A program made the position numbers and the translations under genes. From the NCBI GenBank assembly GCA_029263175.1, contig JAJCXZ010000016.1:24554-88553 (forward strand): a stretch of DNA of 64,000 nucleotides, read 5' to 3'. Shown here piece after piece: positions 35,423-64,000 of the stretch (position 1 is its first letter; every line of letters starts with the position of its first letter). Below the pieces are notes generated by a model. The model was not told where the DNA came from. It did no database searches and saw only the letters and a list, made by a program, of their open reading frames with translations. The stretch comes from Acidimicrobiales bacterium (GTDB lineage: Bacteria; Actinomycetota; Acidimicrobiia; Acidimicrobiales; Aldehydirespiratoraceae).

Positions 35423-37465
35423 CTACGAGGCGACTTCTCGGTGCAGCATTGCCGCAGCCTGAGCCCTGGTGACGTCGTCGCCCGCGGCGAAGGTGGTCGG
35501 CGTGATGCCAGTCGTGATTGCCTGTGCCTTCGCCCACGCCACGGCGACTGAGTAGTACTGGCCCGCGGGTACGTCGGCGAAGCCATGCGCAGGCTGGATG
35601 CCGGGCGATCCCGCCCGGCGCCAGAGCAACGTGGCCAGTTGACCTCGGGTGACAGCGGCATGGGGAGCGAATGTGGTTGGTCCGGTCCCTGTCGTGATGC
35701 CTTCAGCCTTGGCCCACGCCACCGCGTCGTTGAAGTAGGTCTCGGCACCCACGTCGCTGAAGCCATGGGCCGGGTACCCGGTCGGCGTGCCTTCCTGGCG
35801 CCAGAGGAAGGTCACCATCTGTGCCCGGGTCAGGGCCAGGTTCGGGCCGTAGAGCGTGGGTGTGATCCCGGTGGTGATCTCCTCGTCGACCATCCATTCG
35901 ACCGGAGTGGCGTAGTAGGCCGCGTCGGAGACGTCGCAGAAGGTGCCGGACGCTCCGGCGAGTGCGCAGAGCGAACCACTCGGCGCGCCAGATCGGGCCG
36001 GCGACCAACCGGCCATTGGCCATGCGTCGGTCGCCGTTGTCGGCGGCAACGAATACGCGGCGACACGCGTATTGCCGTTCGGGGTATTGAAGCCGGTGAA
36101 CACGATCCGACGTTCACCGTCAAGAATTCCGATCGCAGGAGCTGCCTCGTGCGACCACGCAAAGCTCATCCGATTGGTCCAGTACAGACCACTCTCGAGG
36201 GATGCGCCGTTGTGGCCGTCGAGAAGGGCCAACCCCTTTTCGGTGCCGATGACGACATCCTGGTCGCCGTCGCCATCGAGATCAGCGATGGCCGGGGATC
36301 CAGTTGCGCGGCCTGTTCCGAGGTGTGCGAAATCGGGAATCACCGACCAGTAGGTCGCCCCGGTTCCGTGCCATGCCCAGACCTTGTTGTCCCACGAGCC
36401 GATCACGACTTCGGGTATTCCATCGCCGTCGAGATCGCCGAGCGCAGGATTGCCGATGACCGTGCCGCCCGTGCTCTGCGGCCACCCGGCGACATTGGAG
36501 CCGTCGTCGAGGTGGAAGGCGAAGACCTTGGTGTGGTCGCTCGCGGTGCCGGTCACCGAGTTCCAGTTGTCGCCGGTACCGACGATCGCTTCGGGTCGGC
36601 CATCGCCGTTGATGTCACCGATGGCGGGAGACGAGTGGAAGACCTCGTTGGCGGTGCGGTTCCACATCTCCGTCACCGTGCCGTCCTCCCAGTCGAGGGC
36701 TCGAAACACACCACCTTGGTGGTCGAAGTAACCGCCCAGAGTCGAGTCACCACCGACGAAGATCTCCATGTCATCGTCGCCGTCGGCATCGAAGAGAGCG
36801 GGCGAGGACCAGACCGAGTCATCATTGTTGACCGGGAAACCCGACAATGGCTCGCCGAAGCGATCGACGGCCCAGATCATGAAATCGAATGAGGCGAAGA
36901 CAACATCGAGGTTGCCGTCGCCGTCGACGTCACCGATCGCCGGCGTCGAAAACACACCTTCGCAGTAGCCGTCGAGATTACCCGTATTCGCCCACACGTC
37001 GCCTGTGTCGCGTCCGTGATCGAAGTTCCACTCGAGGGCACCCGTCTTGCCGTCGAAAGCGACGACGCTGCCGTTTTGGTTGGCGACCCACGTGGATCCC
37101 ACACCGACGATCACCTCGGGCGTGCCGTCCTTGTCGATGTCGGCCACCGCAGGACTCGAGTCGATGGCACTGGCGCCGGACTGCCCCTGACAGCCGGGCC
37201 CGATGCCGGGAACTGCGGCGCTCGCCCACTTCAACGTGCCATCGGCCTCATAGGCGCGAAGCTTGCCGTCCTGGTGGCCGAACACGACCTCGTTGGCGCC
37301 ATCGGCATCGATGTCGGCGATAACCGGTGAAGAGGATCGGTTCCAGCCGTCGAGAAGGAACGCCCATTCCTTGTTGTACGGCGTGGCAGCTTGTGCCGGA
37401 GCAGTTGAAAGCGCCACAGAACAGAGGGTGAGGGCGGCAACTGCCGAAAGTAGACGTCGAGCCAT
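35423..37465 (-). CDS. Secreted FG-GAP repeat beta-propeller protein with three C-terminal SLH domains
   Basis: Signal peptide (AQA-A), seven SP-x-x-x-D-x-D-x-D-G type repeats, three FxDV...W...ITTG...TR[AG]Q units. Confidence 0.9.
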   Translation of the reverse strand: MARRLLSAVAALTLCSVALSTAPAQAATPYNKEWAFLLDGWNRSSSPVIADIDADGANEVVFGHQDGKLRAYEADGTLKWASAAVPGIGPGCQGQSGASAIDSSPAVADIDKDGTPEVIVGVGSTWVANQNGSVVAFDGKTGALEWNFDHGRDTGDVWANTGNLDGYCEGVFSTPAIGDVDGDGNLDVVFASFDFMIWAVDRFGEPLSGFPVNNDDSVWSSPALFDADGDDDMEIFVGGDSTLGGYFDHQGGVFRALDWEDGTVTEMWNRTANEVFHSSPAIGDINGDGRPEAIVGTGDNWNSVTGTASDHTKVFAFHLDDGSNVAGWPQSTGGTVIGNPALGDLDGDGIPEVVIGSWDNKVWAWHGTGATYWSVIPDFAHLGTGRATGSPAIADLDGDGDQDVVIGTEKGLALLDGHNGASLESGLYWTNRMSFAWSHEAAPAIGILDGERRIVFTGFNTPNGNTRVAAYSLPPTTATDAWPMAGWSPARSGAPSGSLCALAGASGTFCDVSDAAYYATPVEWMVDEEITTGITPTLYGPNLALTRAQMVTFLWRQEGTPTGYPAHGFSDVGAETYFNDAVAWAKAEGITTGTGPTTFAPHAAVTRGQLATLLWRRAGSPGIQPAHGFADVPAGQYYSVAVAWAKAQAITTGITPTTFAAGDDVTRAQAAAMLHREVAS

Positions 37466-37522
37466 GCATGATCATTCGGTCAAGACCACGCCGCGCCTGA
37501 GCAATCTAGCTCAGGCATTCGG

Positions 37523-39217
37523 TCACACGGGGTCACCGAGATCGATCAACCAGTCCTCGCCGTGCCGGGAAGCGCGTGCGCCACCCTCGACCGCTGCCGT
37601 GGCGATTGCGGCCGCATCAGCCGCTGCATAGGCCGGGAACCCCTGCTCCGACCCGGTGTGCAGGATCACATACCGCACGTCGAGCCGGTCGATGGACGAG
37701 AGTGCTTCCGCGGCCGGGAAGCTGTTCAGAACATCACCCAGCCCGTCGAATTGCTGGGGCGCCGATCCGGAATAGCCGTTCACCCGGGGGTTGAAGTCGA
37801 TCGTGGCGTGATACATCCGTGGCGCTTCGACGAATGGCCAGGCGAATCCATCGTTCGGCGTTTGGATCGGCAACTCGAGCACCACGCCATCGTCCATGTC
37901 GGCGATTGCCTCATAGACCAGCCGGCGATCACCCTCTGGCACCTCGACTCGTCCCATTGGTCCGCCCACCTCGATGATGATCATGAGCACGACAAACGGA
38001 ACGAGCGCCGCTCGCAATCTCGGGTTCACACGGGGTTGGAGCCAGCGAACGGCGAGAACCACGAGCACGGCACCGGCCACGAAGGTCACCACCGCGAAAC
38101 GTGCGGTGGCACGTACCCCATCGAACCCGGGAACGTACGAGTGGAAGAGCCGGAACGGGCCCGGCCAGCCGTTCGGTGACGGCCCGAACGCGAGCACGAG
38201 GGCCACGAGTCCGGCGGCGACGACCGCGATCAACTCCTCGGAACGAACGCGGCCTTCATCGAGACGCGGCCCTTTCCGGATGAGCACGACCATGAGCGCG
38301 GCACCGATGAGCCCAAGCCCGAGCGCGGTGAATCCAACGAAGTAGGGATGCTCACCAGGCCGTCCGAACGAGTTGAGCGAATCGAGCGAACTACCCCAAC
38401 TCCAGTTGTCGCGCTGCGGGGTGATGAGATCACGCAAACCCAGCGAGTTGGCCGGCTCGTACCCGCGACTGACGCCTTGGGTGTCAAGGGTGCGCCGATA
38501 CAACAACGCCACCGGCCCCATCACCGCAGCTGCACCACCGGCCGCAGTGATGGCCACGGGCAGCAGAGAACGGATCGGCGGCAGCGCTCGGCGAACCGCC
38601 ATCGTCGCAACGACCGCAACCGCGGCAACGACCCAGATGAGCCCGTACAGGACGTTGGCCAAGGCAAGCACCACAGTCGCCGCCGCCAACGCGACGCCAT
38701 CGCGCTTGCGCTTCAGTTCGACGGCTCTCAACAGCAGCAGCAGACACAGCGAGATCAGCCCGAACGTCTGGAGCTGAGGATGATTCTGCTGACCGAACAC
38801 GAAGCTGTTGCAGCAGACGACCACGGCGAAGAGAACCGCGAGATCTTCTCGATCGAAGAGCCGCTTCCCGAGGGCATGGGCCGCCACCAGCGCAAAGACG
38901 AACATGGCGATGACCAACAGGTTCAAGGCAACGATTCCGTCACCGCTGAGCCAATTCAAGACGCCGAACACCGGGGCGAGTGACAGCATCGAGTCAGACA
39001 GCGCCAACGTGTTCGCGTGCGGGTAGAAGATGTTGGCGTCGAAGACGTCGAGCGGCTGGGTCGCCAAGCCGTGTGCACCCCACGACAATGTCCACGTGAG
39101 GAACATGCTGTCGCCGAGGTCACCGGCCACCGAAGTCGAGATCCGGTGCGGCGTGGGTTGGAGTAGCAGCACGGTGAGCCCAAGCCACAGGAGCCACCGC
39201 TTCAGACGTAAGCTCAC
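37523..39217 (-). CDS. Multi-TM GT-C-like membrane protein (probable extracytoplasmic glycosyltransferase)
   Basis: DLGD..F..W.L.W, FDANIFYP, RATARF, VNGYSG, VRYVILH. GTG 39217 has GGAG upstream. The ORF-track start overlaps the divergent gene. Confidence 0.72.
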   Translation of the reverse strand: MSLRLKRWLLWLGLTVLLLQPTPHRISTSVAGDLGDSMFLTWTLSWGAHGLATQPLDVFDANIFYPHANTLALSDSMLSLAPVFGVLNWLSGDGIVALNLLVIAMFVFALVAAHALGKRLFDREDLAVLFAVVVCCNSFVFGQQNHPQLQTFGLISLCLLLLLRAVELKRKRDGVALAAATVVLALANVLYGLIWVVAAVAVVATMAVRRALPPIRSLLPVAITAAGGAAAVMGPVALLYRRTLDTQGVSRGYEPANSLGLRDLITPQRDNWSWGSSLDSLNSFGRPGEHPYFVGFTALGLGLIGAALMVVLIRKGPRLDEGRVRSEELIAVVAAGLVALVLAFGPSPNGWPGPFRLFHSYVPGFDGVRATARFAVVTFVAGAVLVVLAVRWLQPRVNPRLRAALVPFVVLMIIIEVGGPMGRVEVPEGDRRLVYEAIADMDDGVVLELPIQTPNDGFAWPFVEAPRMYHATIDFNPRVNGYSGSAPQQFDGLGDVLNSFPAAEALSSIDRLDVRYVILHTGSEQGFPAYAAADAAAIATAAVEGGARASRHGEDWLIDLGDPV

Positions 39218-39220
39218 GCC

Positions 39221-40138
39221 GTGAACTCCGTCGCCGAACTCGACATCTCCATCGTCTTGCCCGTGCACAATGAGGCCGGACACCTCGAAGCCGAGCTCAC
39301 CCGTATCCATGAGTCCATGAGCGCATCATCGTATTCCTGGGAACTGATCATCGTCGATGACGGTTCGAGCGACGGTTCAAGCGATATCGCGATGGGCCGT
39401 CCGAACACTCGCGTGATCCGTGCAGAACGCAACGGCGGCGCCGGTACGGGTCGCCGTATCGGGACCGAAGCCGCCAACGGACACATCGTGGTCTGGTCCG
39501 ATGCCGACATGTCGTACCCCAACCATCGCATCCCCGAGTTGGTCGCCGAGATGGGTGACGCCGATCAGATCGTCGGCGCCCGCACCAGCGAGGAAGGCAC
39601 GCTCAAGATCTTCCGGGTCCCGGCCAAGTGGATGATCCGCCGACTCGCCTCGTATCTCACGAAGACCAAGATCCCAGACCTCAACTCCGGCTTCCGTGCC
39701 ATGCGCCGCGACGTGGCACTGCAGTACATCCATCATCTACCTGCCGGCTTCAGCTGTGTCACCACGATCACCATGGCGTTTCTGATGAACGGCTATCAGG
39801 TGAAGTACGTCCCGATCGACTACGAAACCCGCGCCGGCACATCGAAGTTCCACTGGCTCGCCGACACGCGACGCTACGCCCTTCAGGTCATCCGGATGAT
39901 GTTGTCGTATGACCCGTTGCGGGTGATGCTCCCCATCGCCACCCTTCTCGGACTCATCTTCGTCGGCAAGCTCGGCTACGACTTGGTCGACAAGGACTTC
40001 CGTCCTGCCGCCAACACACTGCTGCTCGGCTTTGCCATGTTCCAGGTGCTGGCTGTCGGGCTGTTGGCCGACCTGGTGGTGCGGGTGAACAAGCCACAGT
40101 GCGCAATCCGTCCTGCCGACGTCATCGAGCGGAGCTAG
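39221..40138 (+). CDS. GT2 polyprenyl-phosphate glycosyltransferase-like protein with two C-terminal TM helices
   Basis: IVLPVHNE, VDDGSSD, DAD, DLNSGFRA, R.GTSKF; TAAGCT 6 nt upstream. Confidence 0.88.
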   Translation: MNSVAELDISIVLPVHNEAGHLEAELTRIHESMSASSYSWELIIVDDGSSDGSSDIAMGRPNTRVIRAERNGGAGTGRRIGTEAANGHIVVWSDADMSYPNHRIPELVAEMGDADQIVGARTSEEGTLKIFRVPAKWMIRRLASYLTKTKIPDLNSGFRAMRRDVALQYIHHLPAGFSCVTTITMAFLMNGYQVKYVPIDYETRAGTSKFHWLADTRRYALQVIRMMLSYDPLRVMLPIATLLGLIFVGKLGYDLVDKDFRPAANTLLLGFAMFQVLAVGLLADLVVRVNKPQCAIRPADVIERS

Positions 40139-41310
40139 TCGAGCCGGTCCAGCAGCGCTTCATAGCGCGCCCGGACCGACTCCCAGCAGAAGAACCCCTC
40201 GGCATAGCGACGGCCCGCGTCCGCCATGTTCTGACGAAGAGACTCACTACCCAGGAGCCGGCTCAGCGCCACCTCGAAGTCGGCGATCCCGGTGTACCAG
40301 AGACCCCCGCCGGAGTTCTCGCAGTGCTCGCGTAGGGGGAGGCACCACCCGTTGACGAGTACCGGCGTTCCCACAAGAAAGGCCTCCGGGACCACGATCG
40401 AAAACGACTCGTGCGGGGAGGGGTTGATCAAGACGTCGGCCGCAGCCAGCAGACCGAACTTGTGCTCGGCATCCACAGGCCCGAGCACGACCACACCGTC
40501 AGTTTCAGGCAGAGCGTCGATCACCGGGCCGGCGAGCACCAGCCGACCACGGCCGGTTCGGGCGCGGAAGTCCGAGAACCGGCGGACGAGTTCGTGGGTG
40601 CCCTTCCCGATGTCGATCCGGCCCAGGGCCACGACGAATGGCTCGTCGCCGAGACCGAGCGCTGAACGTGCCCGTTCGGGATCAACCGGGCCATCGACCT
40701 CGATCGGCAATCCGAGGACGACCTGTGGATGACCGCTCGTTGATGGGAACCGCTCGAGTATGAGGTCCTGCTCGGCTCGGCTGTGGTGGGCGAAGCCGGA
40801 GGCGGCACCGAACACCTGCTCGAAAATCCGAAGGCCGAGAGCCGGCTCGGGATGACACGCGCCGTGCATCACCGAAGGGACTCTGGCGCGCAGAATGCCG
40901 CGAGCCGTCGGTTGATAGAGGTAGGGGTAGAAGCCGAGTACGCCACCGTCGACCTCGGCGACCGCGTCCAGCAGGGCTGCACTGGCAGGCCCCTGACGGT
41001 CGATCCAATCCCACGCTTCGGCGCTCGACACACTCCCGGCCTTGGGCAACACCCGATCGCTGAGCCGATCGAATCCCGGGTCGCGAGGATGGTCGACCCG
41101 GAATCGGTTGACCCGGACGCCTTCCTCCAACGTCTCCCCGGCGGCGAACTCGTCCGCCCAGGTGACGTGAGAACGGGCACAGCTGCTGAGGACCTGCACA
41201 TCCCAACCTTCAGCGGCGAGTCCGACGGCGAGACTTCGGGCGCCCTGCTCGGCGCCTCCGTGCACGTCCGCGCCATAGCGGGGTGTGACGAAGGTGACGC
41301 GACGACTCAT
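40135..41310 (-). CDS. Glycosyltransferase family 4
   Basis: PRYG...GGAE, GRID.GKG, PSPHESFSIVVPEA. Confidence 0.9.
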   Translation of the reverse strand: MSRRVTFVTPRYGADVHGGAEQGARSLAVGLAAEGWDVQVLSSCARSHVTWADEFAAGETLEEGVRVNRFRVDHPRDPGFDRLSDRVLPKAGSVSSAEAWDWIDRQGPASAALLDAVAEVDGGVLGFYPYLYQPTARGILRARVPSVMHGACHPEPALGLRIFEQVFGAASGFAHHSRAEQDLILERFPSTSGHPQVVLGLPIEVDGPVDPERARSALGLGDEPFVVALGRIDIGKGTHELVRRFSDFRARTGRGRLVLAGPVIDALPETDGVVVLGPVDAEHKFGLLAAADVLINPSPHESFSIVVPEAFLVGTPVLVNGWCLPLREHCENSGGGLWYTGIADFEVALSRLLGSESLRQNMADAGRRYAEGFFCWESVRARYEALLDRLD

Positions 41311-42359
41311 CGGCCTGCCTCCAGAAAGCCGGCCAGCGCACGGATGTTGGTGCGACGAGACACCGGTCCGGCGAAATTCGCGGCCCGGGCGTATCCCGCC
41401 GAGCGGAGCGATTCCCGCAACTCTGCGTCGGACAGGACTCGGTGGAGAGCGGCGGCGATCGTGGCCGGGGCCTTGTCGCCGAGCAACAGTGCGGCATCGC
41501 CGACCGTCTCGGGAACCGCAGCCGCTCGATGGGCGACCACCGGGAGGCCGTGATGCATCGCTTCGATGATGGGCACACAGAACCCTTCATGAGCAGACAG
41601 GCATGCGAATACATCGGCACGCTCGTACCAGGACGCGAGCTCACCCCCCGAGACAGCGCCTGTGAAACGCACCCGCTCCCCGATTCCGAGCCGACTGGCG
41701 AGGCGCCGAAGTGCGCGTTCGTACCGTCGCGAGGCCATGGATCCCACCAGGACCAACTCCGCCTCGGGACGTCTGGAACCCAGTGCCGCCATCGCCGCGA
41801 TCAAGTCATGATGGCATTTGTTGGGAGCGACGCGACCCACGAAGAGCACGGTCCCACCGTTGGTGGGGGCAAGCCGATGCTCGCGCTCAGCAGCGGCGGG
41901 TAGGGTCCAGAGAACGGGGGCAACGTGAACATCGCCGAACCCGGCCGACCGCATGTCGCGGGCGTTGAACTCTGAAACCGCCAAGCCACCCCGAGCAACC
42001 GGCGCCAGCTGATCGAGTTGTGAGCGACCCCAACGCAAGCCCGAGATCAGGTCTGCGTCCCATGCTTCGACGAGTTCTGGCGGCGTCACATTGTGATAGT
42101 TGACCACCACGGGGATTCGCTCCCGGATCGCTCGATCGGCGATATCTGAGCCGATCGCGTGCTGAAGAACCGTCAGGTTCGCCGTTGCCTTCCAGTCCTT
42201 GAGCAGGGTGACCGGCTCGTCAGAGGTGACGAACTGCACGACGATGCGAACGTCGGCGCCCTCGTCGACCAGGAGGTCGCGCATCAAACGGGTGTGGTTG
42301 CTCGTGGCGTCGTGAGACCCGAGCTCTGAAAGGAGCAGATCAACGCTAAGACCCTTCAC
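41307..42359 (-). CDS. Glycosyltransferase family 4
   Basis: YHNVTP, FVGRVAPNK, HEGFCVPIIEAM; GTGA overlap at 42356-42359. Confidence 0.9.
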   Translation of the reverse strand: MKGLSVDLLLSELGSHDATSNHTRLMRDLLVDEGADVRIVVQFVTSDEPVTLLKDWKATANLTVLQHAIGSDIADRAIRERIPVVVNYHNVTPPELVEAWDADLISGLRWGRSQLDQLAPVARGGLAVSEFNARDMRSAGFGDVHVAPVLWTLPAAAEREHRLAPTNGGTVLFVGRVAPNKCHHDLIAAMAALGSRRPEAELVLVGSMASRRYERALRRLASRLGIGERVRFTGAVSGGELASWYERADVFACLSAHEGFCVPIIEAMHHGLPVVAHRAAAVPETVGDAALLLGDKAPATIAAALHRVLSDAELRESLRSAGYARAANFAGPVSRRTNIRALAGFLEAGR

Positions 42360-44337: not shown

Positions 44338-44338
44338 G

Positions 44339-44352
44339 CCTGGACGCTACCG
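44339..44352. repeat. 14-bp direct repeat, copy 1 (CCTGGACGCTACCG)
   Basis: Identical to 47051-47064; the two copies flank the YfhO-like gene. Confidence 0.7.
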
Positions 44353-48454: not shown

Positions 48455-48463
48455 AGTCCGAAC

Positions 48464-50857: not shown

Positions 50858-50919
50858 CTGTGCATCGTAGCGACGGTCGGCTCGCTAGGATCACAGCGCG
50901 CATCAGCGCCTGTCGAACC

Positions 50920-55996: not shown

Positions 55997-56034
55997 CTTG
56001 AGCAACCTAGCGGCGCTGGTAGCCTTGCTCCCGC

Positions 56035-56769: not shown

Positions 56770-56806
56770 GGCTCAGATAACCCCGATCTGAGCCGATGAG
56801 AACGTC

Positions 56807-58066
56807 ATGCGTTCGGATTTGGTCATCATCGGATTGGGTTACGTCGGACTACCTCTCGCTCAGGAGGCGGTGGCCAGCGGCCTCACGGTCGTGGGCCTCG
56901 ATGTCAACGAGTCGATGGTCGGGGGACTGATGTCCGGCGTCTCGCATGTCGACGATCTCGACAACGGCGACATTGCGGCGATGCTTGCCCGTGGCTTCCG
57001 AGCGACGACCGATGCGACCTGTATCAGCTCCGCTGATGCGGTCGTGATCTGTGTTCCGACCCCGCTCAGTGGGGACGGAGTCCCGGACCTCACCGCCGTC
57101 ATGGGTGCCGCGAAATCGGTCGGCGACAATCTCCGCGCCCGGACCCTCGTGGTCCTCGAGTCGACCACCTACCCCGGAACGACCGAGGATGTCCTTCGTC
57201 CCGCGATCGAAGCCGCCTCCGATCTCACCGCCGGGGTCGACTTCCCCCTGGCCTTCTCGCCGGAGCGAATCGACCCGGGCAATCCGACTTTCGGTGTACG
57301 CAACACCCCAAAGGTCGTCGGCGGCATGACCGCCGAGTGCACGGATCGGGCGGTCGACCTCTATGCGCGAATCGTCGACACGGTCGTGCCTACGGTCGGC
57401 ACTCGCGAAGCAGAGATGTCGAAGCTGCTCGAGAACACCTACCGCCACGTGAACATTGCGTTGATGAACGAGATGTCGGTCTTCTGCCATGACCTCGAGA
57501 TCGATCTGTGGGCCGCCATCGACGCGGCCAAGACCAAGCCGTTCGGCTTCCAGGCCTTCTATCCGGGCCCCGGCGTCGGTGGGCATTGCATACCGATCGA
57601 CCCGAACTATCTGGGCTACGCAGTGCGGTCGCTGGGCTATCAGTTCAAGTTCGTGGAGCTGGCGCAGGAGATCTCCGGGCGCCGCCCGTCATATGTTGCG
57701 TTCCGTTCACAGGAACTGTTGAACGAAGCAAAGAAGTCGATGAATGGTTCGAAGGTCGTGCTTCTCGGTGTGACGTACAAGTCGAACATCAGCGACGACC
57801 GCGAGACTCCGGCCCGTCCGGTTGCGGCCAAGCTCAAGGGCATGGGCGCCGAGGTCAGCTACTACGACCCGTTCGTCGACCACTTCGAGGTCGAGGGCGA
57901 GACCCTGCCGGCGGAGCCCGACCTTGGTGAGGCCATCGTCTCAGCCGACCTCGTGGTGTTGCTCACCGCTCACGACGTGTTCATGGACGAGCCGCTACTC
58001 GGCAAGGCCGATCGCATTCTCGATACGCGCGGTTCGATCAGCGGCGACAACGTCGTCCGGATCTGA
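56807..58066 (+). CDS. Nucleotide-sugar dehydrogenase (UDP-HexNAc 6-dehydrogenase, WbpA/WecC family)
   Basis: GLGYVGLPLA, ESTTYPGTT, SPERIDPGN, KLLENTYRHVNIA, GGHCIPIDP. Confidence 0.92.
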   Translation: MRSDLVIIGLGYVGLPLAQEAVASGLTVVGLDVNESMVGGLMSGVSHVDDLDNGDIAAMLARGFRATTDATCISSADAVVICVPTPLSGDGVPDLTAVMGAAKSVGDNLRARTLVVLESTTYPGTTEDVLRPAIEAASDLTAGVDFPLAFSPERIDPGNPTFGVRNTPKVVGGMTAECTDRAVDLYARIVDTVVPTVGTREAEMSKLLENTYRHVNIALMNEMSVFCHDLEIDLWAAIDAAKTKPFGFQAFYPGPGVGGHCIPIDPNYLGYAVRSLGYQFKFVELAQEISGRRPSYVAFRSQELLNEAKKSMNGSKVVLLGVTYKSNISDDRETPARPVAAKLKGMGAEVSYYDPFVDHFEVEGETLPAEPDLGEAIVSADLVVLLTAHDVFMDEPLLGKADRILDTRGSISGDNVVRI

Positions 58067-58094
58067 TCGAGCGCAGCGAGAACCCTGCTTGCTG

Positions 58095-60002
58095 CTAGAA
58101 GAGCGCGCCGGTGGGGACCGGGACGCCTGCACCCCATGCGTCTCCGGCGTTGACGAGGCGCCACAGGAACGTGATCATCTGTGCTCGGGTCACGACGTCG
58201 TCGGGTGAGAAGGTCGTCGGCGTGGTGCCGGTGGTGATCGCGAACAACGCCATCCAGGTGACCGGGGCGGTATAGAACTGCCCGGCGGGAACGTCGCTGA
58301 AGCCGCTGTTGGTGCCGTAGTCGGGTTCGCCGGTCAGTCGCCAGAAGAACGTGGCGACTTGGCCTCGGGTGACCCCGGCGTCGGGTTCGAAGGTCGTAGG
58401 GGTCGTTCCTGTCGTGATGTCGAGCTCGGCGGCCCAGATGACGGCTTCGGTGTACCACGTCCCAGCGGGGACGTCGGTGAAGGGGTTCGCGATCGTGGGA
58501 GCCGGGCTGCCCATCAGGCGCCACAGAAAGGTCACCGCTTCGGCGCGGCTGAGAGTGCGGGCATGGTCGAACTCGGTCCCGCCGGTGCCGGTGGATACGC
58601 CCGTCGCCTTGGCCCAGTCGGCGGCGATCACCCAGAAGCCGTAATCGGCGTCGGTGAACGGTTCGAAGTCGAGAGCGGCCAGCGCTCGCGGTTCAGGGAA
58701 GCGGGGGTCACGGTCCGAGGGGCTCGGGGTCACGAACGTGATCATCTCGCCGGTGGCTCGGAGCAACTCCATCGACCGTTCGGGCGACCAACCGCTGTGG
58801 TTCCCATCGAGGAGCGCCAGCAAGGCGGCGACGTGGGGCGCAGCCATGGACGTGCCGTTGAAGCTCCCGATTCCATCGCCGTCATAGTCGAAGAGAACGG
58901 TTGAGTCGATGCAGACTCCCGGAGCGACCAGGTCGATCGCCGGCCCGACCTGGGTGAAGGGAGCAACCTCGGCGGGGACGTCGCTCGAACAGATGAAGCC
59001 AGGACCCGAGGGTGTGTGGCGGCCGGTTGCGCCGACTGCGATCACTCCGTCGAGGCACGCGGGGAACGCGACCGGTTGGCCGTCGGTATTGCCGCTCGCT
59101 GCAACCACCGCGATTCCGGCGGCATTGAGCGCATCGATGGGACCCGCCCAGGGACCCGGAGCACAGCCATCGGCGGGCCCACCCAGGCTCAGGTTGACGG
59201 CCGCGATGTCGGTGCCACCCTCGTGAAGCTCGAGGACGTGGCTGAGGGCGGCGAGAACCGCAGCCTCTGGAATGTTGTCGGCAGCGTCGTTCATCACTCG
59301 GATGGAGACGACCCCCACATCGGGGGCTACGCCGTCGACTTCGGTCTCGGCCCCGATCGTCAGCGAGCTTCCGGTGATGATTCCGGCCACATGGCTACCG
59401 TGGGAGCAGTCCTCGACAGGCCCGGTGCAGGGTGTGCCCGTTCCCGGCCCAGTGGCGGTCTTCGTACCGGAAACCGGACAACGGCTCGGGTCACCCGGCA
59501 GGAGTCCGGTGAGGAAGCATGCTTCGCCGACGACGCTGGCCGAAAGCCCAGGGTGAGCGGTGTCGATACCGGAGTCGATCACGGCGACGACCTTGCCGGT
59601 GCCCATGGCGCCTGCCGCTCGGATCAGATCCCCTTCCACGATGCCCACAGATGCTTCAACGAAAAGCTCCAGCCGGCGCGACTCGGTCACACCGCCGACG
59701 ACCGAGAGCTGTTCGACCAGAGCCTCGCCGGCGTCGGTGGCCGCCACCGTCAGAAGACCGAAGCGGGGATTGCTGTCGATGACCTCGATGTTTCCGCCCG
59801 CGATCACGTCGAGCACCGCTCCCAGCTGTGCGGGATCGACCTCGTCGTCTACTTCCACGATCAGTGTGGCCGAGCGAGCAGATTGCGCATCTGCCATCGG
59901 CCCCGGCTGCTCCTCGGGTGCGTCCACCGCCGCGGCCTCTGTGGTGGCAGCAACCGTGCCCGAAGCAAGGAGGACGGTCAGCGCGGCAGCAACAAGTCGC
60001 AT
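58095..60002 (-). CDS. Secreted subtilisin-like (S8) serine protease with three C-terminal SLH domains
   Basis: Signal peptide, prodomain, catalytic triad VIDSG / HGSHVAG / GTSMAAPH, three SLH units. Confidence 0.92.
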   Translation of the reverse strand: MRLVAAALTVLLASGTVAATTEAAAVDAPEEQPGPMADAQSARSATLIVEVDDEVDPAQLGAVLDVIAGGNIEVIDSNPRFGLLTVAATDAGEALVEQLSVVGGVTESRRLELFVEASVGIVEGDLIRAAGAMGTGKVVAVIDSGIDTAHPGLSASVVGEACFLTGLLPGDPSRCPVSGTKTATGPGTGTPCTGPVEDCSHGSHVAGIITGSSLTIGAETEVDGVAPDVGVVSIRVMNDAADNIPEAAVLAALSHVLELHEGGTDIAAVNLSLGGPADGCAPGPWAGPIDALNAAGIAVVAASGNTDGQPVAFPACLDGVIAVGATGRHTPSGPGFICSSDVPAEVAPFTQVGPAIDLVAPGVCIDSTVLFDYDGDGIGSFNGTSMAAPHVAALLALLDGNHSGWSPERSMELLRATGEMITFVTPSPSDRDPRFPEPRALAALDFEPFTDADYGFWVIAADWAKATGVSTGTGGTEFDHARTLSRAEAVTFLWRLMGSPAPTIANPFTDVPAGTWYTEAVIWAAELDITTGTTPTTFEPDAGVTRGQVATFFWRLTGEPDYGTNSGFSDVPAGQFYTAPVTWMALFAITTGTTPTTFSPDDVVTRAQMITFLWRLVNAGDAWGAGVPVPTGALF

Positions 60003-60185: not shown

Positions 60186-62111
60186 ATGCGTCGAACAACA
60201 TTCGCCCGAGTGGCACTGCTGGGGCTCATCGCAAGCTTTGTCGTGCCCACCGGGCCGGCGGCCGCGGCGGTCCCCGACGAACCGTTCATCACCATCGTGG
60301 GCGGCGGCTGGGGCCACGGCGTGGGCATGAGCCAATACGGCGCGCTCGGGCGAGCCGAAGCAGGCCACACTCCCGAAGAGATCCTCACCTTCTATTACGA
60401 CGGCACCACGATCGAGAATCGCTCCGAGGCGATCGACACGATCCTCGGCACCGGACTCCGGGTCCGCCTGAGCCCTCCACCCAATGGCAGTCGGCCCACG
60501 AGCGCCACCGTGACCGCCGAGGGAGATGCGAAGCTGTCGATCGAAATCGGCGCCTTCTCACAGGCGGAGGTCGGGGGGTCGGCAATCGTCACGATGGGAG
60601 CGATGGTCTCTGGTGCGGGCACACCTGCTGAAGATGACGACACCTGGGAATGGCATGTCGACGCCGGGGCCGGAGATATCTGCGGAGCAAGCTGTGTCGC
60701 CCGCGCCGCGCGAGTCCTGCGTCCCGAAGGCGCTGTCATCGACATCAGCGACAACGCCCAGGGCGCACAAGGCAGGCATGACACCGGCAATGTCGAGCTG
60801 GTCGGCCAAGACCAGAGCGTCGATGGCTTCTTCATCGTGCTGGCCGACGTTCCCATCGATGAATACCTCCAGGGAATCGCTGAGGTCCCTGCATCCTGGC
60901 CCGCCGAAGCCATTCAGGCGCAAGCGATAGCCGCCCGGAGCTACGCCGTCGCCAAAGCGGAGAGTCGCCGGGCCGGTGGCCTCTCATTCGATGTCTACGA
61001 CTCGGTCTGGGATCAGGTGTACGGCGGACTCGATACGGAACACCCGAACATCACCGCCGCTGTCATGGCCACCACCGGTCAGGTCGTCGTCTATGACGAC
61101 GCCATTGTGCGCACGTTCTACACCTCTTCGAACGGCGGCTACACCTCTGCTTCCGAAGACAGCTTCACCACGGCTGAGCCGTTTCACATCGCCAAGCCCG
61201 ACCCGTTCGATCCCGCTCCTGATGAGGACGGGGAACCCCAGAACGGGCGTTGGCAGTGGACGCGCATCTACACCCTCGACACCCTCTCGACCTGGTTGGA
61301 GAACCACAACACCACCGATGGTGCCGGCCAGGTTGACCGCATCACGATCAGTGGGGTGCCCCCGTCAGGCCGGGTCAACGATGCCGACGTCACGATCTAC
61401 GGATCGGCCACGACACTTGGTGACGATGAGTCCCTCCACGGAATCTCGCTCTACACCGCGATCAACAAGGGAGCGTCAGACTGCAGCAGCGGCGAGACCG
61501 TCGATTGTGGCGACCTGTACTCGACCAACTTCCAGATCATCACCTTCTACGACGTGCCGATCGATGCCTACTACTTCGATCCGGTCACCTGGATGGTACT
61601 CAACCAGCTGACCACCGGGGTCTCGCCCAACCAGTTCGCGCCGGACAAGGCCATCTCGCGGGCGGAGGTCGCCACCTTCCTGCACCGCTTCGCCGATCAA
61701 CCGCCCGCAATCCTGCCCGGGCCCTTCGAGGACGTCGAGATCGGGGCCTTCTACGAGGAGGCAGTGTCGTGGATGGCAGAGACGGGGATCACCACCGGCA
61801 CCAGTGCCATGGCGTTCTCACCAGGCGAGACGGTAACCCGCGGCCAGGCGGCCACGTTCCTGTGGCGGTTTGTCGGCTCACCCGCGCCGACCGTCGACAA
61901 CATCTTCGACGATGTCGCCGGGGGCAGGTATTACACCGATGCAGTGCGCTGGATGGTGGAATGGGATATCACCACCGGCACATCCCCCACCACCTTTGCG
62001 CCCGACGACCCGCTGACACGCGCCCAGATCGCCACCTTCCTGTGGCGCCTCGCGGGTGCGCCGGGTGCATTCCATCCCGGCACCACTCTCCCCTCATCGA
62101 TGCGCCTATGA
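60186..62111 (+). CDS. Secreted SpoIID/LytB-family lytic transglycosylase with three C-terminal SLH domains
   Basis: GWGHGVGMSQYGA, YLQGIAEVPASW..EA..AQAIAARSY, DQVY, three SLH units. Confidence 0.92.
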   Translation: MRRTTFARVALLGLIASFVVPTGPAAAAVPDEPFITIVGGGWGHGVGMSQYGALGRAEAGHTPEEILTFYYDGTTIENRSEAIDTILGTGLRVRLSPPPNGSRPTSATVTAEGDAKLSIEIGAFSQAEVGGSAIVTMGAMVSGAGTPAEDDDTWEWHVDAGAGDICGASCVARAARVLRPEGAVIDISDNAQGAQGRHDTGNVELVGQDQSVDGFFIVLADVPIDEYLQGIAEVPASWPAEAIQAQAIAARSYAVAKAESRRAGGLSFDVYDSVWDQVYGGLDTEHPNITAAVMATTGQVVVYDDAIVRTFYTSSNGGYTSASEDSFTTAEPFHIAKPDPFDPAPDEDGEPQNGRWQWTRIYTLDTLSTWLENHNTTDGAGQVDRITISGVPPSGRVNDADVTIYGSATTLGDDESLHGISLYTAINKGASDCSSGETVDCGDLYSTNFQIITFYDVPIDAYYFDPVTWMVLNQLTTGVSPNQFAPDKAISRAEVATFLHRFADQPPAILPGPFEDVEIGAFYEEAVSWMAETGITTGTSAMAFSPGETVTRGQAATFLWRFVGSPAPTVDNIFDDVAGGRYYTDAVRWMVEWDITTGTSPTTFAPDDPLTRAQIATFLWRLAGAPGAFHPGTTLPSSMRL

Positions 62112-64000
62112 CGCTCCCGCGCCGCCAACTCCTCCGGGCGGCCGCAGCAAGTCCAGTGTTCTTACTTGCACCCGGATTCGCGCGGCGTGCTCTTGCCAAT
62201 CCCACCGCTCCCTCGGTGGTGGGAACCACGCGTGTTGCCACCGCGAGTGGCGGTGTGTCGATCAGCTGGCACGCCGGTTCGAGTCCGGAGACGGTGGGCA
62301 CCATCCGAGCGCTCGTCGACGGGGTCTGGTCAGCCCCGATCCCCGTGCACCCCGATCATCACCATGGACCCGAGAGCACCGACGGACGGACCCACAGCCA
62401 AGCGGTGATCGTGCCGGGCGCGGCGGTCTACGAGATCACGCCGGCAAGTGCCGGATTTCGCTACGACATCCACCCCCTTGATCCCGCGCCCCGCCGCCTG
62501 GGCCTGCTCGCCGACGACGGCCTCACCCGCTTCGAGCCACTTCCGGGTCTTGAAATCATCGAGCGCAGCAACTGGACCGACCGTGCACGCCTCGACACGA
62601 TCGACTGTGTGATCGGGTCCTCGGTCTTCGGACTCGGCTGTCGTTCCGACGTCGGCCTCCGGCACGCCGTCATTCATCACACCGTCAATGTCAACGACTA
62701 CGCCATGGAAGACGTGCCCAGCCTCCTCGACGGAATCCAGCGTTACCACATGTTCACACGCGGTTGGGACGACATCGCCTACAACTTCGTGATCGATCGC
62801 TTCGGGCGCATCTGGCAGGCTCGAGCGGCCGATCTCCTCGAACCCATCACCGGTGGCCACACGACAGGGCTCAATGCCGAGAGCGTCGGCGTCGCCCTTC
62901 TCGGGACATTCACCGACCATGATCCGGGTCAATCCGTGACCGACTCGCTCGGCCTGCTTCTGGGGTGGAAGCTCAGCCTCCACGGAATCGACCCACTCGG
63001 CGTCACCGAGGTCCGCTCCGGTGGCGGCGACTATGCCGAGCCCGGCGAGCGGGTGCTGGTCGACAATATTTCGCCGCACCGAGCCAACCAGAGCACGAGT
63101 TGTCCGGGAGACGGCACCGTGGCTCGTCTCGACGAGATCCGCAGCGCCGCAGCTGAACTGGTGCCGGTCTTCGGCACCGTGGTCCCCCGCTACACCCTCG
63201 ATCAGGTCGACGTGAGGGGCTGGGCAATCGATCGATTCTCACCAACCACTCCCCTCGACATCGACGTTGTCGTCGACGGGGTCGCCACGACAACGGTGAG
63301 TGCACAAGACCTCGTGGCCGACCTCCAAGTGGAGTATCCGCAGGCCGGCAACGGTCACGGCTTCTCCCACACGGTTCCGATCGACCTCGACACAACGTCG
63401 ATCGTCGTCACGGCGAAGACGGGCGACGGACGCAGCGCCGAGTTGATGGATCTCACGCTGTTCGCCACGTTCATCGATGTCGAGCCCCACCGATTCTTTG
63501 CCGCCGGTGTCTACTGGCTCCGGGAGAACGAGCTGACGACGGGTACGTTGCCAGGCCTGTTCGAGCCGATGGACGAGCTGTCTCGCGGGCAGATGGCCGC
63601 CTTCCTCTGGCGGTTCATGGACCACCCCGTCGTCGACGACCAGGCACCGTTCATCGATGTGCAACGACCGAGTTGGTACGCCAGCGCCACCGACTGGCTC
63701 TTTGCCAGCGGCATAACCACAGGCACCGCCCCGGACCTGTTCTCGCCTGACGAATTCGTGACCCGGGGGCAGATGGCGACGTTCTTGTGGCGCCTCTGCG
63801 GGTCGATCGCACCGGATCAGCCATCGTCATTCGAAGATGTGCCCGTTGGCCGCTACTTCACCGACGCGGTGGCGTGGCTGGCGGAAACCGAGATCACCAC
63901 CGGCGTCACGCCGAAGCTCTTTGCCCCCGAGGCCTTTGTCACACGCGGCGAGATGGCCACGTTCCTCCAACGTCTGGCCACGACGCCCAAGGCTTGGGCC
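62108..64000 (+). CDS. Tat-exported N-acetylmuramoyl-L-alanine amidase (Amidase_2/PGRP type) with three SLH domains; runs off the right edge
   Basis: Manual translation from ATG 62108 (ATGA overlap with SpoIID) gives PRRQLL, HAVIHHT, GWDDIAYNF, GGHT...N, PHR....TSCPG, then three SLH units. No in-frame stop was seen. Absent from the ORF track. Confidence 0.92.
   Translation, partial: MTLPRRQLLRAAAASPVFLLAPGFARRALANPTAPSVVGTTRVATASGGVSISWHAGSSPETVGTIRALVDGVWSAPIPVHPDHHHGPESTDGRTHSQAVIVPGAAVYEITPASAGFRYDIHPLDPAPRRLGLLADDGLTRFEPLPGLEIIERSNWTDRARLDTIDCVIGSSVFGLGCRSDVGLRHAVIHHTVNVNDYAMEDVPSLLDGIQRYHMFTRGWDDIAYNFVIDRFGRIWQARAADLLEPITGGHTTGLNAESVGVALLGTFTDHDPGQSVTDSLGLLLGWKLSLHGIDPLGVTEVRSGGGDYAEPGERVLVDNISPHRANQSTSCPGDGTVARLDEIRSAAAELVPVFGTVVPRYTLDQVDVRGWAIDRFSPTTPLDIDVVVDGVATTTVSAQDLVADLQVEYPQAGNGHGFSHTVPIDLDTTSIVVTAKTGDGRSAELMDLTLFATFIDVEPHRFFAAGVYWLRENELTTGTLPGLFEPMDELSRGQMAAFLWRFMDHPVVDDQAPFIDVQRPSWYASATDWLFASGITTGTAPDLFSPDEFVTRGQMATFLWRLCGSIAPDQPSSFEDVPVGRYFTDAVAWLAETEITTGVTPKLFAPEAFVTRGEMATFLQRLATTPKAWA

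Follow-up and report, generated by a model that had tools for sequence, protein, structure and literature searches.

The analysed window is a stretch of 64,000 nucleotides from a contig of an Acidimicrobiales bacterium (class Acidimicrobiia). It carries a cluster of glycan genes flanked by four genes for exported SLH proteins. The relevant features are the following (coordinates in the window, strand, description):

12298-28639, mixed strands, left-hand wall-glycan genes: a 1037-aa GT2, GDP-mannose 4,6-dehydratase, epimerase/reductases, sugar-1-P nucleotidyltransferase, three GT4, UDP-glucose-type dehydrogenase
28723-30330, minus, LCP-family glycopolymer-peptidoglycan ligase (PF03816 93.5 bits; TIGR00350 91.4 bits, cut-off 62.3)
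34132-35418, plus, GT4 glycosyltransferase, left boundary of the cluster (Glycos_transf_1 78.4 bits)
35423-37465, minus, exported beta-propeller protein with FG-GAP repeats and 3 SLH (680 aa; Pfam SLH E 6.5e-23)
37523-39310, minus, 11-TM protein without family match (595 aa), divergent from GT2_a
39221-40138, plus, GT2_a, GtrB/ArnC-type GT2 with a C-terminal pair of TM helices
40135-41310, 41307-42458 and 42356-43411, minus, three GT4 glycosyltransferases (Glycos_transf_1)
43408-44337, minus, methyltransferase-like gene (MetW-like 22.7 bits, cut-off 21)
44347-47046, minus, YfhO-like membrane protein (PF09586 48.3 bits, C-terminal part only; 14 TM-like segments)
47078-48454 and 48712-49707, plus, two GT2 glycosyltransferases (Pfam GT2 families)
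49619-50857, minus, Wzy_C-domain polytopic membrane protein (PF04932 45.9 bits; 8 TM-like segments)
50860-51732, plus, Wzm permease (ABC2_membrane; galactan Wzm model)
51564-52496, plus, Wzt ATPase (ABC_tran; TagH and galactan Wzt models)
52550-53518, minus, GT2_d, GT2 with 3 C-terminal TM-like segments (PF00535, PF13641)
53515-54885, minus, initiating polyprenyl-phosphate phosphoglycosyltransferase (PGT), Bac_transf (PF02397 191.9 bits; TIGR03025 301.4 bits, cut-off 295.55; 4 TM-like segments)
54944-56005, minus, CsaB-like polysaccharide pyruvyltransferase (353 aa from a TTG start; PF04230 81 bits)
56035-56769, plus, GT2_PPsynth, soluble DPM1/PpgS/AglJ-type GT2 (PF00535 117 bits)
56807-58066, plus, nucleotide-sugar 6-dehydrogenase (TIGR03026 402 bits, cut-off 189.8; Pfam UDPG_MGDP_dh N, central and C domains)
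58095-60002, minus, exported Peptidase_S8 (subtilase) with 3 SLH (635 aa; Pfam SLH E 3.3e-18)
60186-62111, plus, exported SpoIID-domain peptidoglycan enzyme with 3 SLH (641 aa; Pfam SLH E 2.1e-23)
62108-64000 (window end), plus, Amidase_2 (N-acetylmuramoyl-L-alanine amidase) with 3 SLH (641 aa; Pfam SLH E 4.2e-20)

Five GT2 and four GT4 genes lie between or beside the SLH genes, and the Pfam and NCBIfam matches bear out the cluster with a PGT, Wzm/Wzt and many glycosyltransferases described in the original prediction. The four exported triple-SLH proteins that it placed around this cluster were likewise recovered, with a C-terminal match to PF00395 in each. Pfam detected 3, 2, 3 and 2 SLH stretches in gene order and an SLH profile built from the same genome three domains in all four. 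The Amidase_2 gene is truncated by the window edge; its true end lies 33 nt further and the full protein contains three SLH copies. A hydrophobic signal-like segment was found at all four N-termini by a Kyte-Doolittle heuristic, which is not a signal-peptide predictor, and that of the Amidase_2 protein includes an RR (Tat-like) motif. The SLH region of the FG-GAP protein aligns with the SLH domains of SbsB and Sap and carries the motifs LTRAQ, VTRGQ and VTRAQ. The putative clients of the polymer are not confined to these four proteins of the locus: in the genome, 78 Pfam matches were distributed across 31 open frames and the genome-specific profile gave 90 domains across 34 ORFs. Among the 27 SLH ORFs located outside the window, 14 of the 20 examined with Pfam contain an extra catalytic or binding domain, and the whole set includes proteases, wall hydrolases, pectate lyase, phosphoesterases and others. 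The arginine of the TR[GA][QE] motif is kept in 90/90 SLH domains, the SLH glycine in 89/89 and the tryptophan in 74/89. In SpaA of Paenibacillus alvei, SLH-Trp13, Gly29 and Arg43 bind 4,6-Pyr-beta-D-ManNAc (Blackler et al. 2018, PMC6081394); the conserved arginine is the counterpart of the pyruvate-binding arginine of SpaA.

These 31-34 SLH proteins coexist with a single match to PS_pyruv_trans in the whole genome, the gene of the window. Its product matches TIGR03609 (CsaB) over positions 1-290 of the 301 in the profile (E 1.8e-41) and scores 142.5 bits, by far its best NCBIfam match, the WcaK model reaching 15 bits. The AlphaFold model (pLDDT 87.3) matches a generic GT-B-type fold. By tblastn against 72,556 plasmid records, the protein retrieved no EPS-type enzyme; the sole matches were one Paenibacillus record and two genes annotated as csaB. 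Its homologues in Acidimicrobiia MAGs already carry the name CsaB from JGI or NCBI. Judged from its sequence, the enzyme is thus CsaB-like and not WcaK-like, as had been proposed. Its score remains below the NCBI equivalog cut-off for CsaB (213.1), which would suit the decoration of a capsule or exopolysaccharide in a WcaK/ExoV-like role with no SLH link, the SLH proteins binding peptidoglycan or another polymer. We consider this very improbable in view of the low WcaK score, the plasmid search, the arginine invariant in every SLH domain of the genome and the distribution of the two families.

The expected co-occurrence of both families was observed at two scales, in counts for which related genomes are not independent samples. 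In the class sample, full-length CsaB-model matches of at least 134 bits, a line set after the score gap was seen, were found in 8 of 201 genomes; SLH (E<=1e-7) was present in 7/8 of these versus 8/193 of the others. The phylum sample (n=401) comprised 28 genomes with both families, 14 with CsaB only, 11 with SLH only and 348 with neither, i.e. SLH in 28/42 CsaB-positive versus 11/359 CsaB-negative genomes. The double-positive genomes span 11 coded families. The unpublished G449 (both) and G422 (CsaB only) are counted here; leaving them out gives 27, 13, 11 and 348. Exceptions, which favour the capsule reading, occur in both directions: SLH at E<=1e-9 was absent from 14/42 CsaB-positive phylum genomes and no PS_pyruv_trans was found in 4/15 SLH-positive class genomes (G070, G114, G126 and G154, 95-96% complete). 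The association is therefore strong, but not strict. With 28/401 sampled genomes having both families, their joint presence is not rare in the phylum. A preprint already mentions SLH/CsaB, as a Terrabacteria trait, retained in 'a few examples within Actinobacteria'. For Acidimicrobiia, the literature search found no paper on an SLH/CsaB wall-anchor system, in line with the original prediction.

The genomic context was compared among 33 loci of Acidimicrobiia with 35-71% identity in the CsaB-like gene. An SLH-triplet ORF is located within 5 kb of this gene in 25/33 loci, which also speaks against a capsule role and gives the predicted synteny. The commonest SLH neighbour in the related loci is the SpoIID-SLH gene. 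The block amidase-SLH / SpoIID-SLH / S8-SLH / GT2 / csaB recurs in L034, L056, L062 and L066. In L035, L036, L056, L059, L061, L062 and L066, an S8-SLH orthologue is found next to GT2_PPsynth and the CsaB-like gene. The most constant neighbour is a DPM1-type GT2, found within 500 bp in 25/33 loci and always divergent, as GT2_PPsynth is in the window. GT2_PPsynth reaches neither cut-off with its best NCBIfam models, AglJ (129.7 bits) and PpgS (82.6 bits); its best PDB matches are dolichol-P-mannose synthase 5mlz and ArnC, making it a candidate polyprenyl-phosphate sugar synthase. This neighbour is replaced in G066 and G182 by an orthologue of GT2_a, whose PDB matches are all GtrB, ArnC or DPMS (7/7); the best solved relatives of both GT2 are thus polyprenyl-phosphate glycosyltransferases. 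In L035 and L036, the space between GT2_PPsynth and the CsaB-like gene is occupied by a YfhO-like gene. The YfhO-like protein of the window, which has a weak PgfM1 match, is a candidate GT-C transferase using a polyprenyl-phosphate sugar. No Pfam or NCBIfam match was obtained for the 595-aa protein; its Atlas look-alikes ('GT39 family'/DUF6311, score 0.98) are a lead only.

These neighbours could indicate a carrier-lipid route. The CsaB-like enzyme would pyruvylate the polyprenyl-monophosphate sugar made by the adjacent GT2, and the pyruvylated sugar would be flipped and then attached extracellularly to the wall polymer by the YfhO-like GT-C protein. If so, the SLH ligand would be a side-branch installed extracytoplasmically. 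The local module of Aldehydirespiratoraceae also fits, consisting only of rmlA/B/D, a membrane protein, SpoIID-SLH, GT2, csaB, Wzt and Wzm with no PGT or other GT nearby. Nevertheless, we know of no precedent in which a polyprenyl-monophosphate sugar is pyruvylated, the family of the GT2 does not tell which acceptor it uses, and the co-orientation of csaB with the PGT and GT2_d genes in the window fits a lipid-PP acceptor equally well. Such a route therefore seems rather unlikely to us, despite its resemblance to the way in which GacI/GacL provide the side chains of streptococcal rhamnopolysaccharides (abstract of 10.1101/180810), and despite the lipid-linked substrate of P. alvei CsaB (see below).

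The csaB, PGT and GT2_d genes form a co-oriented run with the PGT gene directly downstream of csaB. The PGT gene adjoins the CsaB-like gene in 9/33 loci and is followed by a GT2_d-like gene in L034, L036, L050-L052, L056 and L059. Wzt is found within 5 kb in 26/33 loci. The window Wzt consists of the nucleotide-binding domain only, the TagH and galactan Wzt models aligning to residues 60-300; since its ORF overlaps that of Wzm, the true start is probably later. A Wzy_C gene is kept after Wzm in L036, L050-L052, L056, L059 and L064, and counterparts of the GT2 pair (47078-49707) follow Wzy_C in related loci; the Wzy_C protein is a candidate ligase, polymerase or O-oligosaccharyltransferase. Next to their CsaB-like gene, L045, L060 and L064 carry the methyltransferase-GT4-GT4-GT4 block. 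The LCP ligase predicted at 28723 was confirmed and is one of two in the genome, the second being on contig C45. This second LCP, and the BirA, AccA and Lpd genes that break up the region, count against the surface-display reading favoured below. The LCP-BirA-AccA-Lpd-GT4 neighbourhood, including the orthologue of the GT4 at 34132-35418, adjoins the CsaB-like gene in L045.

PGT, Wzm/Wzt, Wzy_C, the methyltransferase-like gene and the GTs at the centre of the cluster have an slg-like make-up. The slg clusters for S-layer protein O-glycosylation in Geobacillus and Paenibacillus combine WsaP (PHPT), Wzm/Wzt, a Wzy_C O-OTase and a methyl cap (PMC2943079). The ABC-transporter cluster could accordingly glycosylate surface proteins, with csaB merely parked there and the pyruvylated SLH ligand built elsewhere, for example by the separate cluster on contig C15 that carries the sole TagA/WecG gene of the genome with Wzx, Wzy_C, GT2 and GT4 genes. 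However, WecG/TagA was not found in 5/5 CsaB+/SLH+ relatives (97-99% complete), so TagA cannot be the general partner. The linkage of the CsaB-like gene to Wzt/Wzm and PGT, the LCP gene conserved beside the cluster in L045 and a Wzt devoid of the additional C-terminal domain to which the slg model assigns cap recognition also argue against two separate glycans, which we hold to be improbable.

[quoted passage not shown] In contrast, the window csaB runs with a Bac_transf PGT and a GT2, is divergently paired with a DPM1/ArnC-type GT2 and is linked to Wzm/Wzt. The nucleotide-sugar 6-dehydrogenase gave 244.5 bits with the UDP-ManNAc dehydrogenase model, below the cut-off of 459, and is predicted to make a uronic-acid precursor. 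The sole Epimerase_2 gene of the genome lies among NeuB/CMP-sugar genes for nonulosonic acid, which leaves no evident source of ManNAc of the kind that P. alvei has. On the basis of these gene assignments, the SLH/CsaB system does not replicate that of Firmicutes, the genes predicted to make its glycan being different; the description as a grafted Firmicute-style system is not supported, nor was WecG/TagA found in the five relatives.

Overall, we find it fairly probable that this bacterium has a surface-display system of the SLH/pyruvyl-glycan type with its core in the window. The observations concern the genes present, the identity of their domains, copy numbers, conserved residues, co-occurrence and synteny; the chemistry throughout, which sugar is pyruvylated and the binding by SLH domains are inferred. 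If P. alvei CsaB is a guide, the single CsaB-like enzyme would take pyruvate from PEP and attach it, in ketal form, to a lipid-linked sugar at the cytoplasmic face. The likeliest acceptor would be a short lipid-PP-linked unit begun by the PGT and extended by GT2_d, in place of TagO and TagA. The glycan would be elongated by GT4 and GT2 enzymes, with deoxyhexose and uronic acids supplied by the sugar-nucleotide genes to the left, and exported by Wzm/Wzt. Two pairs, each of a polyprenyl-phosphate-sugar synthase and a polytopic (GT-C-like) membrane protein, may decorate it outside the membrane, and an LCP enzyme would join it to peptidoglycan. The exported SLH proteins would then bind the pyruvylated sugar non-covalently with their conserved Trp/Gly/Arg pocket. 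Surface anchoring by SLH domains and a pyruvylated wall sugar is known; what differs here from the Bacillus-type bacteria studied so far is the set of genes predicted to make the sugar.

The original prediction described four secreted SLH proteins bracketing a glycan cluster that contains a pyruvyltransferase, an initiating enzyme, an ABC exporter and many glycosyltransferases, with an LCP ligase close by. This gene list was borne out almost entirely by an open reading frame (ORF) listing and by Pfam and NCBIfam scans of the window. The features on which the argument turns are the following:

28723-30330, minus strand: LCP ligase (LytR_cpsA_psr domain and N-terminal membrane anchor)
35423-37465, minus strand: FG-GAP propeller protein with C-terminal SLH domains (Pfam)
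37523-39310, minus strand: 595-aa protein with 11 transmembrane (TM) helices, without family match
39221-40138, plus strand: GtrB/ArnC-type GT2, called GT2_a
44347-47046, minus strand: YfhO-like protein with 14 TM helices
52550-53518, minus strand: membrane-associated GT2, called GT2_d
53515-54885, minus strand: Bac_transf phosphoglycosyltransferase (PGT)
54944-56005, minus strand: pyruvyltransferase
56035-56769, plus strand: soluble DPM1/PpgS-type GT2
58095-60002, minus strand: subtilase with C-terminal SLH domains (Pfam)
60186-62111, plus strand: SpoIID protein with C-terminal SLH domains (Pfam)
62108 to window end, plus strand: Amidase_2 protein with C-terminal SLH domains (Pfam)

Between the SLH genes, the cluster runs from a GT4 gene, the 11-TM protein and GT2_a through three more GT4 genes, a marginal methyltransferase match (22.7 bits against a cut-off of 21), the YfhO-like gene, two GT2 genes, a Wzy_C protein, Wzm and Wzt to GT2_d, the PGT, the pyruvyltransferase, the DPM1-type GT2 and a nucleotide-sugar dehydrogenase. 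Further sugar-nucleotide and glycosyltransferase genes extend leftward to about 12.3 kb of the window. According to family models, Wzm and Wzt are an ABC-2 permease and an ATPase of the TagH or galactan-Wzt type, the ATPase consisting of the nucleotide-binding domain only. Since all equivalog scores fall below their cut-offs, the family is assigned and the substrate is left unassigned. Genes for BirA, a biotin carboxylase/BCCP (AccA-like) and a dihydrolipoamide-dehydrogenase-type flavoprotein (30338-34278) separate the LCP gene from the glycan cluster, and this LCP-BirA-AccA-Lpd-GT4-csaB neighbourhood is kept in one related locus (L045). Far to the left, FtsH (8554-10491) lies between two minus-strand ORFs of 987 aa (4162-7125) and 521 aa (10889-12454) without a Pfam match at E<=1e-5; in DNA of 65% G+C, these may be spurious or encode unknown proteins.

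The genome (4.40 Mb, 97% complete) encodes exactly one PS_pyruv_trans protein, a stand-alone enzyme. It matches PF04230 over profile positions 1-277 of 280 with 81 bits (cut-off 25.3) and the CsaB model TIGR03609 over positions 1-290 of 301 with 142.5 bits (E 1.8e-41). The sole other NCBIfam match is WcaK with 15 bits, about 127 bits behind the CsaB model. The TIGR03609 equivalog cut-off of 213.1 is not reached, and the enzyme is therefore named CsaB-like rather than curated CsaB; among the 42 CsaB-matching genomes of the phylum sample described below, only 8 exceed that cut-off. The 73 database relatives all come from Acidimicrobiia-type MAGs, and several already carry the label 'polysaccharide pyruvyl transferase CsaB' from JGI or NCBI. 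A tblastn search of 72,556 plasmid and chromid records returned three matches, two annotated csaB genes and one Paenibacillus record, and no EPS-type enzyme. By these profile scores and this tblastn search, the window enzyme appears to group with CsaB and not with EPS enzymes, and we regard a role in EPS synthesis unrelated to SLH as very improbable.

The database gene call for the enzyme, P0001 (324 aa), begins 29 residues late and cuts off GWAGAGNxGDE, a conserved N-terminal stretch that every aligned homologue retains; translation more probably begins with the TTG at 56005. The structural comparison used the 324-aa call, without the first 29 residues. In its AlphaFold model (pLDDT 87.3), two Rossmann domains form a GT-B-like fold, and the structural neighbours are only generic. 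A PDB sequence search gave no match at E<=1, and the top Foldseek matches listed were generic GT-B enzymes and 2-epimerases, with no pyruvyltransferase structure among them; the modelled fold thus indicates the fold class and nothing beyond it.

The putative clients of this single enzyme are numerous. Pfam finds 78 SLH matches in 31 open frames of the genome, above the cut-off, well matched to the model and arranged as tandem triplets. With a profile derived from the SLH domains of this genome, the count is 90 domains in 34 ORFs, 26 of which carry three copies. The four window proteins have Pfam SLH E-values of 3e-18 to 2e-23, three SLH copies each by the genome-specific profile and, by a hydropathy heuristic, a signal-like N-terminus each. 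The amidase-SLH protein (641 aa, with its stop 33 nt past the window end) has a twin-arginine motif in this N-terminus. Outside the window the genome has 27 SLH ORFs, of which 20 were scanned with Pfam (three cut by contig ends and four others were left out). The triplet is N-terminal in ten and C-terminal in ten; six have SLH only and 14 have a further domain: two trypsins with fn3, S9 hydrolase, M23/M28, VanY, pectate lyase, two DUF1501, CAP, metallophosphoesterase, 5'-nucleotidase, glucose/sorbosone dehydrogenase, PASTA and PKD. The two DUF1501 proteins, C101:62380-64254 (L006) and C48:3357-5201 (L013), have C-terminal SLH triplets and RR-containing N-termini; members of this uncharacterized family are usually exported by Tat, and these two would be wall-anchored versions. 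Because the genome also encodes one sortase, SLH display is not its sole anchoring route.

The binding residues are kept as well. In Paenibacillus alvei SpaA, SLH-Arg43, Gly29 and Trp13 form the pocket for 4,6-pyruvylated ManNAc, the Arg touching the pyruvate (excerpts of PMC6081394). In the present genome the SLH motif is T-R-[GA]-[QE], with the Arg in 90/90 domains, the loop Gly in 89/89 and the upstream Trp in 74/89.

The original prediction also suggested testing whether pyruvyltransferase and SLH genes co-occur and lie together across Acidimicrobiia and other Actinomycetota. Co-occurrence was found in class and phylum, as an association that is strong and not strict, and synteny in Acidimicrobiia. 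In a class sample of 201 genomes, full-length TIGR03609 matches of 134-202 bits were found in 8, followed by a gap down to partial matches of at most 91 bits, and SLH (E<=1e-7) in 15; SLH was present in 7/8 genomes with full-length CsaB and in 8/193 others. In a phylum sample of 401 genomes, 42 had CsaB-model matches (E<=1e-25) and 39 had SLH (E<=1e-9): 28 genomes from 11 coded families had both, 14 had CsaB without SLH, 11 had SLH without CsaB and 348 had neither; leaving out the unpublished genomes G449 and G422 gives 27, 13, 11 and 348. Fisher tests of the association gave very small p-values on genomes that are related and not independent, and the 134-bit class threshold was set after the scores were seen; for both reasons strictness is not claimed.

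The exceptions are of several kinds. Genome G191 has a full-length CsaB-model match (C19:45373-46326, 137.6 bits) and no SLH at E<=1e-7; its enzyme was not matched by the window enzyme in tblastn (E<=1e-5) and, judged by sequence, belongs to a different pyruvyltransferase lineage of the same order. Four of the eight other SLH-positive class genomes contain partial pyruvyltransferase matches inside open frames of 640-1010 aa. Relatives in families f14 and f26 (e.g. G186:C8:3222-3770 and G094:C58:9930-10451) similarly have the CsaB model covering only about positions 124-292, in open frames of 550-1300 aa. These long frames probably encode GT2-GT2-pyruvyltransferase fusions. SLH was found in 6/6 f26 genomes and in only 2/20 f14 genomes (E<=1e-7). 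The other four of the eight, G070, G114, G126 and G154 (95-96% complete), are SLH-positive and showed no PS_pyruv_trans; either assembly gaps hide the gene or their SLH domains use another ligand.

Gene order was compared, by tblastn with the window proteins and with the SLH profile, in two sets, which may overlap: the 10 kb on either side of the CsaB-like gene in seven class relatives, and 33 Acidimicrobiia loci from named MAG records with a CsaB-like gene 35-71% identical. A related-locus search returned 38 loci, all from Acidimicrobiia-type MAGs, with no named Firmicute or Thermus CsaB among them. An SLH-triplet ORF lies within 5 kb of the CsaB-like gene in 25/33 loci; of the other eight, six have a flank shorter than 8 kb, and in L045 and L065 the flanks are complete and SLH is absent. 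Wzt is no more than 5 kb away in 26/33 loci and directly adjacent in 17, and the PGT adjoins the CsaB-like gene in 9/33. The window order (amidase-SLH, SpoIID-SLH, S8-SLH, the dehydrogenase, GT2, csaB, PGT, GT2, Wzt, Wzm, Wzy_C, GT2, GT2, YfhO) was found again, whole or in part, in L034, L036, L056, L059, L062 and L066. In Aldehydirespiratoraceae, the genes around csaB are pared down to rmlA/B/D, one for a membrane protein, one for a SpoIID-SLH protein of 916 aa, GT2, csaB itself, Wzt and Wzm, after which come unrelated metabolic genes. The membrane protein lying between the rml genes and the SpoIID-SLH/GT2/csaB module at L040 (5345-6271, minus strand; 308 aa) has a sub-threshold LPG_synthase_TM (UPF0104-like) match and is a possible candidate for a lipid-linked-sugar flippase.

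The most constant neighbour of the CsaB-like gene is the DPM1-type GT2, which lies within 500 bp in 25/33 loci, always divergent, and within 3.5 kb in 27/33, the YfhO-like gene intervening in L035 and L036. The best PDB relatives of this soluble enzyme are Pyrococcus furiosus DPMS (5mlz) and ArnC. This constancy favours a route not known from any bacterium, in which the CsaB-like enzyme would pyruvylate a polyprenyl-monophosphate monosaccharide made by the divergent GT2, the product would be flipped, and a YfhO-type GT-C would graft it onto the ABC-exported polymer. SLH anchoring could then do without TagO, TagA and perhaps ManNAc. We consider this route rather unlikely. The YfhO Pfam match spans only the C-terminal 73 residues of the 14-TM protein. 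A second candidate pair of the same kind stands at the other end of the cluster. All seven PDB matches of GT2_a are GtrB (5ekp), ArnC or DPMS, and it has two C-terminal TM helices, as is typical of GtrB and ArnC. The closest solved relatives of both GT2 enzymes are thus polyprenyl-phosphate glycosyltransferases. For the divergent neighbour of GT2_a, the 11-TM protein, the ESM Atlas shows a resemblance to GT39/DUF6311 clusters, which is a lead only.

[quoted passage not shown] Unlike in that organism, the window csaB is unlinked to tagA and tagO, its co-oriented partners being the Bac_transf PGT and GT2, and the conserved csaB neighbours in Acidimicrobiia are the DPM1-type GT2 and Wzm/Wzt. The sole WecG/TagA gene of the genome lies on contig C15 in a Wzx/Wzy_C cluster, and the family was not found in any of five CsaB- and SLH-positive relatives (97-99% complete). 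The C15 cluster (7000-26500, L025) is a second glycan cluster with GT2, Wzy_C, a Polysacc_synt flippase, the WecG/TagA gene, another GT2 and an 872-aa double GT4; as a general acceptor source it was rejected because TagA is missing from all five relatives.

Nor is an MnaA-type epimerase evident in the genome, again unlike P. alvei. Three of the five relatives (G066, G182 and G038) have an Epimerase_2 gene at a distance of 1-2.5 kb from the CsaB-like gene; none was found in G167, the relative from the window's own family. The only Epimerase_2 gene of the present genome sits on contig C35 among NeuB, CMP-transferase, aminotransferase and acetyltransferase genes, surroundings on which it was rejected as MnaA; it looks like a nonulosonic-acid pathway enzyme. 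That cluster (C35:9500-29000, L026) is of the legionaminic/pseudaminic type, with a DegT aminotransferase, Epimerase_2, a nucleotidyltransferase with CBS, a PglF-like dehydratase, NeuB, a PglD-like acetyltransferase and a CMP-transferase; a further Wzm/Wzt pair lies directly upstream (C35:10557-12078). Since its only Epimerase_2 gene is in the NeuB cluster, ManNAc supply in this genome is doubtful. Given the distribution of TagA and Epimerase_2, pyruvylated ManNAc is plausible in some Acidimicrobiia lineages and unsupported in that of the window.

The reading that we prefer, with moderate confidence, is a six-step route. The co-oriented and abutting csaB, PGT and GT2_d would make and pyruvylate a lipid-PP-linked unit, taking the place of tagO and tagA without being orthologous to them. 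Elongation would be the task of the GT4 and GT2 enzymes, Wzm/Wzt would export the glycan, and the two polyprenyl-P-sugar/GT-C pairs would decorate it outside the membrane, as described for streptococcal rhamnopolysaccharides in excerpts of 10.1101/180810. The LCP enzyme would then join the glycan to peptidoglycan, and the SLH proteins would dock on the pyruvate-bearing sugar. We hold with considerably more confidence the broader claim that the SLH proteins rely on a glycan which the CsaB-like enzyme modifies.

This route shares elements with three known systems. Like the P. alvei SCWP/SLH system (MnaA, SpaA, SlhA) and its Bacillus counterpart, the locus combines a PS_pyruv_trans enzyme for which CsaB is the best model with many exported SLH-triplet proteins keeping SLH-Trp13, Gly29 and Arg43; csaB lies beside SLH genes and beside an enzyme initiating a wall glycan, and an LCP ligase is nearby. 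CsaB is defined functionally by PEP-dependent formation of a 4,6-pyruvate ketal on beta-D-ManNAc of a lipid-PP-disaccharide. The window enzyme scores under the TIGR03609 cut-off. The streptococcal and lactococcal GAC/RGP systems comprise GacO, rhamnosyltransferases, an ABC exporter, the Und-P-GlcNAc synthase GacI, the GT-C GacL and LCP. A lipid-PP-primed polymer, ABC export, side-chain addition by a polyprenyl-P-sugar synthase together with a polytopic transferase, and LCP attachment (excerpts of 10.1101/180810) are predicted here from gene content, and deoxyhexose genes are likewise nearby. In contrast to GAC/RGP, the initiator is a Bac_transf PGT and not of the GacO/TagO type, the locus includes a pyruvyltransferase and SLH clients, and the host is an actinobacterium.

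The slg clusters of Geobacillus stearothermophilus and P. alvei contain WsaP, Wzm/Wzt, the Wzy_C O-OTase WsaB and the methyl cap enzyme WsaE (excerpts of PMC2943079). The window resembles them in clustering a WbaP-family PGT, Wzm/Wzt, Wzy_C, a methyltransferase-like gene and several glycosyltransferases by surface-protein genes. The ABC cluster might be an slg-type protein O-glycosylation system, with the Wzy_C protein as candidate O-OTase, separate from the SLH ligand. The Wzt, however, lacks the extra C-terminal domain and, unlike slg, the window has a CsaB-like gene and LCP; a glycosylated S-layer protein is a further component of the slg systems. We judge this split improbable.

Some of this has precedent. 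SLH and CsaB are kept 'in a few examples within Actinobacteria' (excerpts of Witwinowski et al., bioRxiv 10.1101/2021.05.31.446380), SLH was counted in 33 actinobacterial species (excerpts of Blackler et al., PMC6081394) and Actinobacteria are among the phyla richest in SLH matches (Hager et al. 2019, PMC6801904). A full-text search found no paper on an SLH/pyruvyl system in Acidimicrobiia; it did not extend to the supplement in which Witwinowski et al. list the Actinobacteria with SLH/CsaB, and which may include Acidimicrobiia. The kind of system is known and the anchoring principle is not new; the novelty appears to lie in a conserved gene context that is independent of TagA.

Acidimicrobiia occur in large numbers in sea water, soil and activated sludge. 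To our knowledge, the detailed studies of SLH/pyruvyl-glycan anchoring are confined to Firmicutes and, where it serves as an outer-membrane tether, to Thermus, cyanobacteria and Negativicutes. The protein side follows the same logic here, in an actinobacterial class that is little studied and for the most part uncultured: the pyruvate-binding Arg is invariant, and there is one pyruvyltransferase for dozens of clients. On the sugar side the gene set is different, with the PGT, the DPM1-type GT2 and Wzm/Wzt, and without TagA. If the proposed chemistry is true, the acceptors of CsaB would be broader than TagA-made ManNAc, and the conserved five to six genes would provide an annotation marker for SLH display in Actinomycetota. 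It would also explain how wall hydrolases, proteases and nutrient-scavenging enzymes are retained at the surface of Acidimicrobiia.
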